DNA of 49,179 bases, from the NCBI GenBank assembly GCA_049523135.1, contig JBEKNE010000001.1, forward strand, positions 717,234-766,412, read 5' to 3'. This document shows, in pieces, positions 39,504-49,179 of the stretch (the first letter of the stretch is position 1; the number at the start of each line of letters is the position of its first letter). Made by a program: the position numbers and the translations under genes. The DNA is from Candidatus Microgenomates bacterium. Its GTDB lineage: Bacteria; Patescibacteriota; Microgenomatia; UBA8517. The notes beneath the pieces are model-generated. The model was not told where the DNA came from. It saw nothing but the letters and a program-made list of their open reading frames with translations, and did no database searches.

Positions 39504-40244
39504 CTAATTATCTGTCTCGCCCGTTGGTGTTACATCAGAAACTGTTCCTAACGGTCTGGCCACAACGATAAGCCTGTTCCAAGAAGTTCCCGGCGGATCG
39601 CAGGTTTGCAAGATAAGTCTTTCCCCGCTTCCGTCATCAGTTAGCCAGGATGTATCGGAAGCCGAAGTCACAAATTTATCCGTAACCACATAGTCGTACT
39701 CCTGATTCATAAAATAGATAACTACCCTGTCCCCTTTTTCAAGTTTTCCGAGTAGATAAAAAACAGCATTATAGCGGGTAATATTTATCGGAGAATCTGT
39801 CGAATGGGAGAATAAATATATTGTTTTACCCCGCCCGGGGAAATTTGTACCCTTGGCATGTGCCACCCCCTCGGAAAGGGCCTTCAAATAATCGGTTGGG
39901 TTACCGGGATCAACATTTGGAATTATGTTTGCTTTGGCGTCAATTTTAGGAATAAAAATAGAAAAATAGGGGTCAAGACCAAGCTCCTCGGCCTGAGACT
40001 TACCGATTGTCTCTGTAAACTTACTGAAATCTTCCTGTTGCTTTGAGCCAAATCTGTACAAAAATTCCTCCTTGGCTATTGGCCAGAAACTGAAAAGTAT
40101 TCCAAGGAAGGCAAAAGCGACAAGCCCCGCGCCGAATGTCCGGAGAAAATGATAACTCAATTTCTTTATTAACGGTGGCCGAAGGGAAACTTCCCGAGAA
40201 GAATTTTCTTTTCCCGACTGATAAATTATACCGTGCGGATACAT
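39504..40244 (-). CDS. Sortase
   Basis: TM anchor; IFIPKID, GVAHAKGT..PG, LFSHS, LILQTCDPPGTSWNRLIVVA (His, TLxTC-like, Arg). Confidence 0.9.
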   Translation of the reverse strand: MYPHGIIYQSGKENSSREVSLRPPLIKKLSYHFLRTFGAGLVAFAFLGILFSFWPIAKEEFLYRFGSKQQEDFSKFTETIGKSQAEELGLDPYFSIFIPKIDAKANIIPNVDPGNPTDYLKALSEGVAHAKGTNFPGRGKTIYLFSHSTDSPINITRYNAVFYLLGKLEKGDRVVIYFMNQEYDYVVTDKFVTSASDTSWLTDDGSGERLILQTCDPPGTSWNRLIVVARPLGTVSDVTPTGETDN

Positions 40245-40252
40245 AAATAATT

Positions 40253-41227
40253 CTAAACCAACTCAAATTTTTTGAAGAGATAAAATCCTATACCCATTAT
40301 TCCGGAAAGGCTGGCTATTAAACCAAGTGTGTCGGAACCTGTCTTTGGCAAATTGGGAGGAGCCGACGCACCAAGAACCTGAGGAGGTGTGGGGGTCGGG
40401 GTTGAAGTAGATCCACAGCCGCAACCGGAATCATCCGGACAGCTTGGATTTCTGCAGTAGCCATTGTAGCAGAAGTATCCACCCTGACAATTGTAATTAC
40501 TGCCGCAGGTTCCGTTACACCAATTTGGTGTGGTGGTGGGTGTCTCGGTTGGCGTGCAGGTCGGAGTAGGAGTCGGTGTTTCCGTCGGCGTAGCAGTAGG
40601 AGTAGCTGTTGGGGTTACTGTAGACGTAGGCGTAGGTGTGGGTGTGGGAGTGGGTGTTTGAGACGGTGTAGGTGTCGGATTTGATTTTCCACAACTGGAA
40701 TCCGGAGTGCAGGACTTCTCCCTGTATTCACAAGTTGTATTGCTTATGCAGTACGGGTAAGTATCACAAAAGTGATTGGCAGAACACCTATTCCCTGTCT
40801 GAGAGGCAGGAATTCCCTGGCAAGAAGAGTTTGAATAACCTTTATCTCCGTGGTAGATTGTGCATCTTTCCCAAACTCCACCTATTTGCTCACAATCTGT
40901 TGTTGTATTATCCGGAATACAGGAATCTGTTGACGTTCCGCCACCATTAGAGCCTGTGCAATCCACATAATGATCAATTTTCCAGCCGTACTCCGAACAA
41001 CTTGAATCATTTGTCGCTACACACTTGGCAACCCAACACTGACTGACACCGTTAACATTCTTTGTGGCTCCGTCGGAAGTACAAACATCAGGGCAATAAG
41101 AAGGATATGTGGAGGCTTTGGATATGCCTACTTTGAAATAACCGCTTAATTTACTGGCAAAAATAATTAAAACAAATAAAGATACTGTGAAGATAAACAA
41201 ACCCGCTTTTAGAAACTTAATTTTCAT
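40253..41227 (-). CDS. Cys-rich secreted protein with Pro-Thr linker and LPXTG sorting signal
   Basis: Signal peptide MKIKFLKAGLFIF (ATG 41227); Cys clusters; (PT)n; LPKTG + hydrophobic stretch + KK tail. Confidence 0.85.
   Translation of the reverse strand: MKIKFLKAGLFIFTVSLFVLIIFASKLSGYFKVGISKASTYPSYCPDVCTSDGATKNVNGVSQCWVAKCVATNDSSCSEYGWKIDHYVDCTGSNGGGTSTDSCIPDNTTTDCEQIGGVWERCTIYHGDKGYSNSSCQGIPASQTGNRCSANHFCDTYPYCISNTTCEYREKSCTPDSSCGKSNPTPTPSQTPTPTPTPTPTSTVTPTATPTATPTETPTPTPTCTPTETPTTTPNWCNGTCGSNYNCQGGYFCYNGYCRNPSCPDDSGCGCGSTSTPTPTPPQVLGASAPPNLPKTGSDTLGLIASLSGIMGIGFYLFKKFELV
40528..40680 (-). repeat. Pro-Thr low-complexity linker
   Basis: PTPTPSQTPTPTPTPTPTSTVTPTATPTATPTETPTPTPTCTPTETPTTTP. 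Confidence 0.9.
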
Positions 41228-41290
41228 CAAATTCTCGGCGGCAGAACCTGACTGCAGGATATAGTAATAAAAAAAACTTGTCAACTGACG

Positions 41291-41383
41291 AAAAAAAACG
41301 CGCCCACTTCTAAACTCAAGGAGCGGGTAGATCCCCTGCCCTAGAATCCACCCGTCCCTCAAATCTAGAAATAAAGCGCGTTT
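41291..41383 (-). ncRNA. Long imperfect hairpin followed by a U-run (terminator or small RNA)
   Basis: AAACGCGC/GCGCGTTT outer stem and a 10-bp inner stem whose mismatches are G:U only on the minus strand; 8-T run. Confidence 0.45.
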
Positions 41384-41429
41384 CTCAAAGGGGCTTGACA
41401 ATGCCCTTTAATCGTTTTAGTCTGATTAC

Positions 41430-41596
41430 GATTTGTCTTGAGCAAGTTTGTTGCAAAATGACCTGTCCACAAGACAAATCTCCTGTACGAAGTACTTGAA
41501 AATTTACTTCGTTATAGTTTTGAAAGAGCATCTCTACTCGTGGCGAGTCCCACTAGAAATTAGAGGAGAACCCAACGATGGCGATGCTCTTTTTTT
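41430..41596 (+). ncRNA. Candidate small RNA with own promoter and terminator
   Basis: TTGACA(41395-41400)-N17-TAGTCT(41418-41423); three perfect stems of 11, 8 and 10 bp; T-run 41590-41596. Confidence 0.5.
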
Positions 41597-41790
41597 GTGC
41601 TTCAAGCACTTGATTTCAAGGTTCAAGAAAAGTGTATCATTCCTTGTCAAGTCTGTCAAACCCCATAACTTATTATTACTATAAAATACATTCCCCTATA
41701 GTTAAAAATATTGAACTTAATCCCATATTTTCGGACAATAAATTTCCCCAAAAATAAATGTGGATAAGTTGTGAGTATAACCCAAAAAAT

Positions 41791-43116
41791 CTACTTGAAG
41801 AGTTGTTTAATCGCCTGGCTTACAAATTTAGCTTCCTTTGAACTTATCGATACCGTAAATCCAAGTCTTTTTGCTTCCTTCATTCTTTTTTCTTGTGCTA
41901 CCACTTCCCTAACTTCTCCCAAGAGCCCAACTTCCCCTACTGCAATAACCTTTCCGGAAATCGGCTTGTCAAAATAAGCTGAAGCTATAGCAAGACAAAC
42001 CGCCAGATCGCTTGCCGGCTCGGTAACTTTCAGCCCCCCGGCAATATTTACAAATACATCCTGTTCGTACAAAGGAAGGCCGCAGCGTCTGGTTAAAACA
42101 GCCAAAAGCATTTCAAGCCTTCTTGAATCAACTCCCTGGGCAACACGCCTCGGAATCATAAGTTTCGTAGGCACAACAAGAGCTTGGATTTCAACAAGGA
42201 TTGGGCGCGTTCCCTGCATAATTGAAGTAACGACACTTCCGGCAACGGATTTTTTACTCTGTTCAAGAAAGGCTCTTTGAATATCAGTAACAGGAATTAG
42301 TCCCCTATCCTGCATATCAAAAACTCCCACTTCATCGGTTGGTCCGAACCTGTTTTTGACAGCACGAAGCACGCGGGTTGTCAGGGTTTTATCCCCTTCA
42401 AACCATAAAACCGTGTCAACTATGTGGGCCAAGACCGCGGGGCCCGCTACAGTTCCCTCTTTAGTTACATGCCCGACCAAAAACAAAGGAATATTTTTGT
42501 TTTTAGCCTTGTGCAGTAAACGATTCGCACATTCCCGAACCTGTCCAATACTCCCCGCCATGCCGGAAAGATCCTCTGTAGTCATTGTTTGAATAGAATC
42601 GACAATAATAGCCTGCAAAGTTTTCCCCTGCATCGAATCAATGGTTTCGATAACCGAATCAACATCCGTTTCCTCAAGAAGATTTATATTATTTTTTTTA
42701 ATCCCGAGCCTGTCGGCACGAACTTTAACTTGGCTTGCGGATTCCTCACCACAAACATAAAGAACTATGCCTAGAGTTTCCGAGATTTGAGTTAAAAGCG
42801 TGGATTTACCAATTCCGGGTTCTCCGGCTATAAGAACCACCTGCCCCGGTACCAGTCCCCCGCCAAGCACCCTATCAAGTTCCGAGATTTTAGTAGAAAT
42901 CCTTTTTACGGTGGCTTGTTTTATCTCGGAAAGTTTAATTGGTTTGGCCCCCTGAAGGTTACCCGATTTAGAGTTTTTGGTGCGGTTACCAATGCCTGAA
43001 GTTTGTTCAACTGTTTCCACCATGCTATTCCATGTTCCGCACTCGGGGCATTTTCCCATCCATCCCGTACTCTCATATCCGCACTGCTGGCAAACATATT
43101 TGGAGTGAAAGGCCAT
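41791..43116 (-). CDS. radA: DNA repair protein RadA/Sms
   Basis: CQQC...CPEC zinc finger, GEPGIGKSTLL, IVDSIQT, GHVTKEG, KNRFG, Lon-like C-terminus. Confidence 0.97.
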   Translation of the reverse strand: MAFHSKYVCQQCGYESTGWMGKCPECGTWNSMVETVEQTSGIGNRTKNSKSGNLQGAKPIKLSEIKQATVKRISTKISELDRVLGGGLVPGQVVLIAGEPGIGKSTLLTQISETLGIVLYVCGEESASQVKVRADRLGIKKNNINLLEETDVDSVIETIDSMQGKTLQAIIVDSIQTMTTEDLSGMAGSIGQVRECANRLLHKAKNKNIPLFLVGHVTKEGTVAGPAVLAHIVDTVLWFEGDKTLTTRVLRAVKNRFGPTDEVGVFDMQDRGLIPVTDIQRAFLEQSKKSVAGSVVTSIMQGTRPILVEIQALVVPTKLMIPRRVAQGVDSRRLEMLLAVLTRRCGLPLYEQDVFVNIAGGLKVTEPASDLAVCLAIASAYFDKPISGKVIAVGEVGLLGEVREVVAQEKRMKEAKRLGFTVSISSKEAKFVSQAIKQLFK

Positions 43117-47582: not shown

Positions 47583-47700
47583 TTCTGGCGGTGACATATT
47601 TTCGCGGTCAGTTGCCCGACAACTATCGTCTGCGCTAAAGCGTTTTACTTCTGTGTTCGGAATGGGAACAGGTAGTGCCACTTCGCACTAACCACCAGAA
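47583..47700 (-). rRNA. rrf: 5S rRNA
   Basis: TTCTGGTGG/CCGCCAGAA terminal helix, CCCATTCCGAACAC signature. Confidence 0.93.
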
Positions 47701-47876
47701 CGATGCCTTGAAAATTATTAGAATTTTAAAAAAGGAAGGTCGCGTCCCACAAATGTGTGGGATCGCAAGAAATCAATCTATTCGCACTGGTAGCCTTAAA
47801 CCCTTACGGGTCTTCCAGCGCCAGCCGATTAACCGGATATTCTTTCCGGGATTTAATATGGAATCCTAATCTTGGA

Positions 47877-47911
<35 letters not shown>

Positions 47912-47991
47912 ACATGGGAATGTAGCTACCCGGCGTTACAGCTGACGCTATAACCGGCACACTAGGGATTCCCCCAGGGAGGTCCTCTCGT

Positions 47992-48676
47992 CAATCGCTC
48001 CTTTATTACTAAAGGGATTAGACTATACCTTCACCCTCCTTCGCCATTTAAGGCTACTGAAGGGGCTAGCTTTATTATGGAAATACTTTCCATCTCGCCC
48101 TTACGGGCTCAGTCGTTACGGGGATACCTTTTTTTCAGAAATTCTTTTACGAATTCTGCCGTATATCGCTTCTTTGTTGTGGCATAATTGTATTTAGAAA
48201 TTTCATCCGATATTTTAGCTATTGCCAAAATATTAAAATCTTTTTCTTTTACAAGTTTAAGTGCTTTCAATGTAAGACTAACTTGTTTTTTCTTGAAATG
48301 AACAAATGGTTTAAGGATTGTTAAAATACGCTCTACTGATTCAAACCCTTCGATTTTAAGCTCGGTCATTAAATCATTTCGATTGTAAATATAACCAATC
48401 CCCAACCTTTCCTTTATCCACTTAAGACTTTCATCGTGCCCAGTTTTCTGAGCAAACGAGATAATAGTTCTTACACGAAAACCCAATTTGGAAGAAGTTC
48501 TTGGCTGCAACTGCAACCGAACGCTTCCATCGCCATCAAAAAAACCAGCAATATAGGAAATATCTTCCCTCGGTATTGTCCTGTATTTAGATAGGACCAT
48601 CATAATGATGATACAGGATTTCACCGATTTTGGCTAGAGTGACGCTGAAAATTACTCTTCAGCGCAGCAAATTTCT
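47992..48676 (-). mobile_element. Group I intron after U2656 (E. coli numbering) carrying a LAGLIDADG ORF
   Basis: P1 CAGU/GCUG with U:G, R-like GTAACGACTGA, S-like GAAGGTATAGTCT, P9 hairpin, terminal G at 47992; 685 nt. Confidence 0.88.
48109..48603 (-). CDS. Single-motif LAGLIDADG homing endonuclease
   Basis: ISYIAGFFDGDGS motif; ISFAQKT..., LGIGYIY; likely start ATG 48603 or 48600. Confidence 0.92.
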   Translation of the reverse strand: MMVLSKYRTIPREDISYIAGFFDGDGSVRLQLQPRTSSKLGFRVRTIISFAQKTGHDESLKWIKERLGIGYIYNRNDLMTELKIEGFESVERILTILKPFVHFKKKQVSLTLKALKLVKEKDFNILAIAKISDEISKYNYATTKKRYTAEFVKEFLKKRYPRND

Positions 48677-48728
48677 ACTGTCCCCAGCTCTCCTCAAGAT
48701 TCCAACGCTTCCACAGGATAGAGTCCGA

Positions 48729-49060
48729 TATTATTGTTAACTCATAATCGCTTATGAGATCCGACTATATCTTAACCGTCAAAATTATTTAACGGTTTCT
48801 GACATATAGTCTGTGAGGATTTCCTTCGATTCTTTTTCAAATCGCTCAGGATCTTTCCTGCTGATTGACCGCACTTGATGCTTTGTCACTCTTACGAGTA
48901 GCACAAGATTCACCGGTGTTTCCAGCATTTAGTCAGATTTATTACCAACTGGAGTTGGTATCTTATAACTAACAGAGAATTACCTTCATTTAAATATAAA
49001 TGAATTCAAAACGTGTATAAGAACGACAGCTCGAATGAACTACATATATCTTATAGTTTT
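48729..49060 (-). mobile_element. ORF-less group I intron after U2604 (E. coli numbering)
   Basis: P1 GACAGU/GCUGUC with U:G, R CACAGACTA (48815-48807), S AAGATATAGTCGG (48773-48761), P9 with GCGA loop; 332 nt. Confidence 0.9.
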
Positions 49061-49094
<34 letters not shown>

Positions 49095-49179
49095 TCACTT
49101 TAACGGGCGAACAGACCGACCCTTGGCACCTTCTTCAGCGCCAGGATGTGATGAGCCGACATCGAGGTAGCGAACCGCG

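Follow-up and report, generated by a model that had tools for sequence, protein, structure and literature searches.

A predicted pair of hairpin RNAs with complementary loops, conserved across Microgenomatia

Kissing-loop control circuits are known mainly from plasmids, among them RNA I/RNA II of ColE1 and CopA/CopT of R1. Here we describe a candidate counterpart that sits on a chromosome and is inherited vertically, found in a 49,179-nt stretch of DNA (hereafter the window) from a Candidatus Microgenomates bacterium (GCA_049523135.1, contig JBEKNE010000001.1, positions 717,234 to 766,412 of the forward strand). The locus occupies a 560-bp gap without a convincing open reading frame (ORF), between an LPXTG-protein gene (start ~41227, minus strand) and radA (41791–43116, minus strand). 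It is predicted to encode two small RNAs on opposite strands: RNA-A (41430–41596, plus strand), a 167-nt RNA made of the hairpins hp1, hp2 and hp3, with hp3 as terminator, and RNA-B (41291–41382, minus strand), a long hairpin with a U8 tail. The hp1 loop of RNA-A is complementary to the loop of RNA-B. Like the ColE1 and R1 systems, the locus contains a multi-hairpin RNA of 100–170 nt, recognition is proposed to begin with the kissing of 6–7-nt loops, and, in this bacterial family only, a convergent promoter would give a fully complementary transcript. Unlike them, it is present once on the chromosome and is inherited vertically throughout a class; it is not at a replication origin and has no rep gene or primer function; its universal partner, RNA-B, is encoded separately and divergently, and is complementary to RNA-A in the loop only, not in full.

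Other described RNAs share parts of this design. FinP/traJ and the FinO/ProQ-type RNAs likewise involve short antisense stem–loops that end in a U-tailed terminator hairpin, and the terminator helix of RNA-A could similarly be a protein handle; unlike in FinP/traJ, the target here is not an mRNA leader, both the sequence and the phylogenetic range differ, and no FinO/ProQ partner was found, no search aimed at one having been made. Known small-RNA sponges use linear seed pairing with Hfq and are usually derived from mRNAs. As in the GcvB–SroC sponge and the ChiX–chb decoy, short base-pairing would let one non-coding RNA neutralise another, but here both partners are dedicated hairpin RNAs that lie side by side across the class. 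OLE, raiA, ROOL and GOLLD are orphan conserved bacterial non-coding RNAs. They resemble the present pair as lineage-wide structured RNAs that are supported by covariation and not tied to one regulated gene, whereas RNA-A and RNA-B are much smaller and simpler (two to three hairpins), form a two-gene pair on opposite strands and have no Rfam match. The 4.5S and 6S RNAs are also single-copy, clade-wide small RNAs, and RNA-B, a rod-like hairpin of ~90 nt, recalls 4.5S RNA; unlike these, RNA-A and RNA-B lack domain IV of the signal recognition particle (SRP) RNA and the 6S closing stem and bubble. Judged from sequence, RNA-A and RNA-B appear to be a new, well-supported pair of RNA families that is not in Rfam and for which we found no literature.

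An initial annotation, made from the window's sequence alone, had described three stems, a U-run and two facing promoters at this locus, and all of these were recovered. In hp1 (41430–41480, plus strand), an 11-bp stem (41430–41440/41470–41480, 11 of 11 bp formed) encloses a loop that carries CCUGUCC (41462–41468) beside the 3′ arm. It is followed by hp2 (41487–41512, plus strand), with an 8-bp stem (41487–41494/41505–41512, 8 of 8 bp), and by hp3 (41523–41596, plus strand), whose stem (41523–41532/41583–41592, 10 of 10 bp) runs into a T7 tract (41590–41596). As the conserved core of RNA-A, hp3 is an irregular helix of ~20 bp (AAAGAGCAUY...GAUGCUCUUU) with a variable tip and a U-run at its end. 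The 171-nt plus-strand sequence folds at −54.7 kcal/mol, against −34.6 ± 3.75 kcal/mol for dinucleotide shuffles (z = −5.4, with 0 of 200 shuffles as good). The minus strand of the same stretch also folds well (z = −4.7), so the strand cannot be read from folding alone.

Below, family denotes the window's own family (f1, Woesebacteria) and class denotes Microgenomatia. A BLASTN search of 60 relatives recovered the stretch in 17 genera, with its stems conserved through compensatory changes and with hp3 as the best-conserved part. From the alignment of these 17 genera we built a covariance model, R1, with an RNAalifold structure of 35 pairs. In the family alignment (37 sequences), 98.0% of the cells are paired and 17 pairs show compensatory changes. 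The class alignment (42 sequences) holds three reverse-strand rows, which can only weaken its signal; 94.3% of its cells are paired, and 24 of the 35 pairs show compensatory changes. For neither alignment did any of 500 shuffles reach these values, and slid controls gave 38–55% (family) and 38–56% (class). All 10 modelled pairs of hp1 show compensatory changes across the class. Within hp3, the P2 and P3 helices and the tip covary and P1 is nearly invariant; this near-invariance of P1 throughout the class points to a constraint on sequence beyond what a plain intrinsic terminator needs. The middle hairpin, hp2, is a lineage-specific insert: within the family it is limited to some genera, and most of the class lacks it. 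Outside the family RNA-A is usually 90–120 nt long and consists of hp1 and hp3, and in a few lineages (L159, L168) hp3 is the sole part retained.

Several features identify the sense strand. About 87 G·U cells of RNA-A fit the plus sense only and become C·A mismatches on the other strand, and model R1 scores 105–128 bits in sense (123 bits at the window's RNA-A, plus strand), compared with 25–41 bits for antisense matches. Upstream lies the promoter P-plus (41395–41423, plus strand), read from the sequence as TTGACA (41395–41400), a 17-nt spacer and TAGTCT (41418–41423), and the predicted start of RNA-A, G41430, falls 7 bases 3′ of this −10 hexamer. Defined as a perfect TTGACA, a 16–18-nt spacer and a −10-like hexamer (TAnnnT in family f1, the looser NAnnn[A/C/T] elsewhere), P-plus precedes RNA-A at 40 of the 41 loci of the family and at 29 of 29 loci from other families; a perfect TTGACA stands at the right distance in 69 of the 70 loci in total. 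A run of at least four U residues follows RNA-A in 65 of the 70 loci, 38 of 41 within the family and 27 of 29 outside it. Because the G·U cells, the sense scores of R1, and the conserved plus-strand promoter and U-run agree, we assign RNA-A to the plus strand. Promoter-like matches by themselves are not above chance in this 1-kb stretch (4 seen, 2.0 ± 1.3 expected); the real support comes from conservation, as dozens of genera share the stems, P-plus and, within the family, the facing promoter, with changes that are compensatory. RNA-A would accordingly be a stand-alone plus-strand small-RNA gene from about G41430 to about 41596, its structure and strand established by the alignments and its transcription predicted from the flanking signals. 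Covariation and the conserved P-plus and U-run hence agree with the initial proposal of a ~167-nt non-coding plus-strand RNA running from promoter to terminator. The absence of a convincing ORF was likewise upheld: the listed ORFs start in promoter or stem sequence and are broken by stops and non-triplet indels in relatives, no small ORF is conserved on either strand, and small ORFs encoding a type I toxin were rejected on these grounds.

Directly upstream of P-plus, on the minus strand, lies RNA-B, which was not part of the initial annotation. It is a 28-bp hairpin with the loop UAGGGCAGG (GGGCAGG at 41341–41335) and a U8 tail, and its loop consensus is U(A/U)GGGCAGG. Among 49 sense-strand sequences, 94.7% of the cells are paired and 24 of the 28 pairs show compensatory changes, for a covariation score of 0.67 compared with 0.21 for shuffles. 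The minus-strand sense is the only one that allows several of its near-invariant G·U pairs. A second covariance model, R2, which scores 81 bits at the window's RNA-B, places RNA-B adjacent and divergent to RNA-A in 37 of 37 family loci, with 65–91 bits in sense and 25–36 bits in antisense. In 21 class-level loci R2 gave 15 full-length matches at E < 1e-7 and 5 weaker or partial ones, and none in L158 only; it also finds RNA-B downstream of radA in loci of the Amesbacteria and Levyibacteria types. RNA-B lies on the strand opposite RNA-A in all paired loci examined. In the Levyibacteria-type loci the RNA-A/RNA-B pair is inverted relative to radA and keeps its own divergent arrangement. With 28 covarying base pairs and a nearly invariant loop, RNA-B is more constrained than a plain intrinsic terminator.

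The gene upstream of the inverted pair in four Levyibacteria-type loci (L078, L117, L072 and L132) ends in ...GR(I/M)LFAKK(I/M)* and encodes a putative PIN/TRAM (YacL-like) protein, which suggests a radA–yacL–B–A order there. At another locus (L005, G019:C23), RNA-B is pushed ~130 nt further from RNA-A by a hairpin-rich insert that repeats the first bases of RNA-B (GGGACGGGTG).

The loops of the two RNAs match each other across the class. A clean hp1 with a 7-nt loop is found in many families, for example GGUUUUCAAAGUUU-CCUGUCC-AAACUUGAAAACC, and this loop is complementary to GGGCAGG of RNA-B. The RNA-B heptamer lies within 420 nt upstream of RNA-A in 65 of 70 loci and is invariant in all 65; 64 of these 65 loci carry CCUGUCC or a C/U variant of it in hp1. 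The hp1 loops comprise CCUGUCC, CCUGUCU, CCUGCUC, CCUGUUC, CCUGCUU, CCUGCCU, UCUGUCC, UCUGCUC and CUGCCC. They differ only by C↔U exchanges that face G, so pairing is preserved through every change, and the U and G that face the A and C of RNA-B are constant. The eight variants folded (all but CCUGCUU) form duplexes of 6–7 bp with the RNA-B loop at −8 to −12 kcal/mol. Full pairing with this loop is possible for only 32 of the 16384 heptamers. In family f31 RNA-B does not lie beside RNA-A; short hairpins of the form GGACCGUAUG-UAGGGCAGG-CAUACGGUCC-UUUU instead occur on the contig of RNA-A, 2.7 and 5.1 kb away from it in two genomes, with weak matches elsewhere in two more. The f31 RNA-A loop, CUGCCC, is the exact complement of the RNA-B loop. 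At the level of sequence, the pattern of hp1 and RNA-B loops is as a kissing interaction predicts, short of proof. One f31 locus (L174, G236:C8, ~1490–1560) holds two tandem B-type hairpins with the loop UUGGGCAGG, each followed by UUUU and both unlinked from RNA-A.

Homologues of radA place the window's organism in Candidatus Woesebacteria, within Patescibacteria (the candidate phyla radiation, CPR). Model R1 finds exactly one copy of RNA-A in the organism's own genome, a single locus in each of 86 of the 125 genomes of the family (55 of 81 genera), and matches in 190 of 301 class genomes (~63%; 155 of 234 genera in dozens of families). The sample counts are lower bounds, since filtering was stricter and the training set of the model came from a single family. 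A sample of 301 genomes from the phylum gave 9 matches, all in Microgenomatia, and R1 did not find RNA-A in any other Patescibacteria class sampled. The locus has no plasmid or phage match; it lies at 758 kb, and the GC-skew minimum is at ~110 kb, ~118 kb away across the contig junction. Its distribution indicates a chromosomal, single-copy locus inherited vertically, class-wide and in synteny. This class-wide occurrence, together with RNA-B and its complementarity to hp1 and the lineage-specific nature of hp2, goes beyond what the initial annotation had described.

We favour a chromosomal two-RNA kissing-loop module specific to Microgenomatia and composed of RNA-A and RNA-B, a reading to which we give an even chance of being right. 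RNA-A would be made from P-plus, with its consensus −35 box, starting near G41430 and ending at the hp3 terminator near 41596. Its hp1 loop, CCUGUCC, would dock on the RNA-B loop in a kissing contact of 6–7 bp, by which one RNA would titrate, sequester or remodel the other. Besides terminating RNA-A, hp3 would probably also act as a protein-binding or effector platform, since the sequence of its helix, and not just the pairing, is nearly invariant.

A further layer may operate in part of the class. The promoter that faces P-plus, P-minus (41631–41659, minus strand), was found by promoter scan as TTGACA (41659–41654), N17 and TACACT (41636–41631) with an upstream TG, and its predicted start is ~41624. 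In the family it takes the form ATAGGGTTTGACA-N17-TGnTAnnnT, 8–138 nt past the 3′ end of RNA-A. It stands within 200 nt of that end in 37 of 41 family loci, compared with 7 of 29 loci of other families, and is conserved only in Woesebacteria and a few other families. A terminator scan found no minus-strand terminator-like site between P-minus and RNA-B. With no nearer promoter and no terminator between them, the simplest reading is that P-minus, possibly together with read-through from radA, gives a transcript of ~335 nt (41291–41624, minus strand) that runs antisense through RNA-A, on into RNA-B, and ends at the RNA-B U-run. In Woesebacteria and the few other families P-minus would probably make RNA-B in this way, as the 3′ end of a transcript fully antisense to RNA-A, which would also couple the two RNAs, by cis-antisense action or transcriptional interference. 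The antisense partner put forward by the initial annotation is therefore probable within the family, where the facing promoter is kept, but is not expected in most other families, and the constant partner is RNA-B. The RNA-A/RNA-B pair would then be the constant element and the cis-antisense layer a family-level addition.

More speculatively, RNA-A and RNA-B might make up an RNA switch or ribonucleoprotein found in Microgenomatia alone, with a core and possibly essential role, in which the RNA-B loop docks a central machine or protein, RNA-A acts through hp1 as its dedicated antagonist and hp3 offers a second protein handle. We consider this unlikely; if true, it would represent a housekeeping RNA system that defines the clade and ranks with 6S or 4.5S RNA, set in a genome where neither SRP RNA, SRP GTPases nor 6S RNA were found.

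Several observations weigh against a kissing-loop module. The RNA-B loop never varies, leaving no two-sided covariation for the pairing of the two RNAs, and ordinary transition bias could also account for the C/U exchanges that face G. One locus, L159, keeps RNA-B though its RNA-A has no hp1. RNA-B has no convincing sigma-70 promoter in the family's spacer between it and P-plus, which is too short, and most other families lack P-minus. Nor does the module account for the conservation of sequence in hp3, and no target or protein partner was found among the loop hairpins, stable RNAs and start-codon heptamers examined. Some of these points would also fit two real RNAs that do not touch, each with its own protein or target, the complementarity being either a relic (with hp1 as an inverted duplicate of the RNA-B hairpin) or a sign of a shared third partner. 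An invariant RNA-B loop looks as if constrained by something other than RNA-A, the L159 RNA-B does without hp1, the universally retained part of RNA-A is hp3 rather than hp1, and in f31 R2 matched the reverse complement of hp1, consistent with an origin by inverted duplication. A relic should decay, however, and the loops have stayed complementary across nine or more variants and even where the two genes have become unlinked. The hp1 loop motif and RNA-B also appear to have been lost together in family f11, where RNA-A has no loop motif and R2 found no RNA-B in 5 genomes, although this absence is weak evidence given the limited genome-wide sensitivity of R2, which missed a known RNA-B in G163. 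On balance we regard two RNAs without mutual contact as possible but somewhat unlikely.

The remaining explanations differ in which transcript they take to matter. If RNA-B were the radA terminator or 3′ untranslated region, or a leader or insulator of the sortase or LPXTG gene, RNA-A could regulate that end of the mRNA as a cis-antisense RNA; radA is convergent with RNA-A in 30 of 30 family loci and lies near it in 19 of 28 class loci, no minus-strand terminator separates the radA stop from RNA-B, and the RNA-B U-run ends directly before the LPXTG promoter. Such a role in cis is nevertheless improbable, as the two RNAs stay in the same mutual arrangement where the pair is inverted relative to radA, RNA-B is unlinked from RNA-A in f31, the gene downstream of RNA-B varies, and an invariant loop on 28 bp of covarying stem far exceeds the needs of a terminator. 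Still less credence attaches to a single functional ~335-nt minus-strand RNA, from P-minus to the RNA-B terminator, with the plus-strand promoter and fold as incidental mirror images. P-minus is strong and conserved in the family, RNA-B has no nearer promoter there, and the minus strand folds well (z = −4.7, as above). Yet the G·U pairs of hp1 and hp3 are tolerated on the plus strand only, R1 scores ~90 bits higher on that strand, and P-plus and the plus-strand U-run occur class-wide, whereas P-minus is missing in 22 of 29 loci of other families; moreover, in 3 of the 5 Levyibacteria-type loci read, where the pair is inverted, there is no P-minus and a TTGACA box near RNA-B precedes a weak −10-like hexamer by 17 nt. 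Convergent promoters around a multi-hairpin RNA, and 7-nt loops typical of kissing antisense RNAs, had led the initial annotation to liken the locus to type I toxin–antitoxin or copy-control RNA pairs. Neither likeness survived: no toxin ORF is conserved, candidate small ORFs on both strands being destroyed in relatives, and the locus is a single chromosomal copy, ~118 kb from the GC-skew minimum, without plasmid or phage match, flanked by radA and sortase genes, and inherited vertically, class-wide and in synteny. We find a type I toxin–antitoxin locus or a plasmid-type countertranscript pair highly implausible.

Known RNA families were examined as further identities. The initial annotation had not recognised the family, and the Rfam covariance-model check returned no match for it: at gathering scores Rfam 15 found only ribosomal RNA (rRNA), a group I intron, 5S RNA and tRNAs in the whole window; at E ≤ 10 it gave only two chance matches of 14–16 bits in 41200–41800; and in 12 divergent loci at E ≤ 1 it gave only sub-threshold microRNA-hairpin matches. 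The idea of RNase P RNA arose from UAGGGCAGG, which occurs in the RNase P RNAs of model bacteria. It was rejected, the genome's own copy being at 238796–239104 (106 bits) and lacking the UAGGGCAGG motif and its complement. Transfer-messenger RNA (tmRNA) is also encoded elsewhere (91839–92205). For SRP (4.5S) RNA, RF00169 had no match in the organism's own genome and 60 relatives, and a motif scan revealed no domain IV. RNA-A and RNA-B have no GNRA tetraloop and no domain IV symmetric or asymmetric loops, and RNA-B has no internal loops near its tip. Neither Ffh nor FtsY was found in the genome; PF00448 (SRP54-type GTPase) reached 18 bits at best, and a six-frame regular-expression search for DTAGR, TKxDG..GG and the N-domain-plus-P-loop found nothing in the whole genome. 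As a side observation, no SRP pathway was detectable in this genome, and PF00448 was seen in only 2 of 151 Patescibacteria genomes, a count that may reflect a search pre-filter. The 6S family (RF00013) had no match at E ≤ 10 in the whole genome, and 6S RNA was rejected: RNA-A is a series of independent hairpins that has neither the end-to-end closing stem nor the central bubble of 6S RNA, and its minimal versions are hp3 alone. A mobile element was rejected on the single copy and the lack of phage or plasmid matches, and a replication-origin or primer RNA on the GC skew, which puts the origin near 110 kb.

Searches for a partner were negative within the following scope. The conserved parts of RNA-A and RNA-B showed no pairing with RNase P RNA, tmRNA, 5S, and partial 16S and 23S rRNA above shuffled controls. 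Hairpins elsewhere in the genome with the same loop were only chance matches inside coding regions. Target heptamers for the RNA-A loop were not enriched before start codons (6.5%, compared with 6.3–6.4% for control motifs).

About 63% of the Microgenomatia genomes sampled retain the pair, in one copy, despite sizes of 0.6–1.3 Mb; retention in genomes this small argues for an important function. Almost nothing is known of post-transcriptional regulation in CPR/Patescibacteria. In Rfam 15 and by full-text search we found no published lineage-specific non-coding RNA for this group, and the full-text search found no paper that names Woesebacteria or Microgenomates together with non-coding RNA terms. 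The loop–loop complementarity provides a directly testable RNA–RNA interaction, and models R1 and R2 could seed new Rfam families, improve the annotation of Microgenomates and serve as lineage markers.

The surroundings of the pair are partly constant. The radA ORF is a conserved neighbour, its homologue flanking RNA-A convergently in all the family loci counted above and lying within 1.5 kb in the 19 class loci; this constancy may reflect only inherited gene order. A sortase-type gene stands 3′ of RNA-B in 23 of 30 family loci, and the gene downstream of RNA-B differs among relatives. In the window, a sortase gene and an adjacent gene for a Cys/Thr/Pro-rich surface protein ending in LPKTG (39504–41227) lie directly downstream of RNA-B. 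The surface-protein gene has its own promoter, TTGACA(41284)-N17-TATCCT, and represents an insertion compared with most relatives, in which the sortase-type gene directly follows RNA-B. Directly after the RNA-A U-run, the terminator scan found a small GC hairpin (GTGCTTCAAGCAC, 41597–41609, plus strand), which is possibly a back-up terminator for RNA-A; similar GC hairpins are seen in some relatives.

A palindrome surrounds the −35 box of P-plus (41388–41409, AAGGGGC-TTGACAAT-GCCCTTT). Its arms differ yet stay complementary in about one third of the related loci (ACGGGT...ACCCGT; GGGTC...GACCC), and it may have arisen by chance, serve as an operator or fold into a hairpin within the minus-strand precursor; a conserved hairpin was rejected, the palindrome being seen in only this third of loci. 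Finally, the single contig ends inside an rRNA operon: window positions 47583–49179 hold the 3′ part of 23S, a group I intron (48741–49007) and 5S, and the 16S 515-region motif lies near the contig start, at genome position 478 (minus strand). Because the contig ends within this operon, the '100% complete' assembly is not closed across it.

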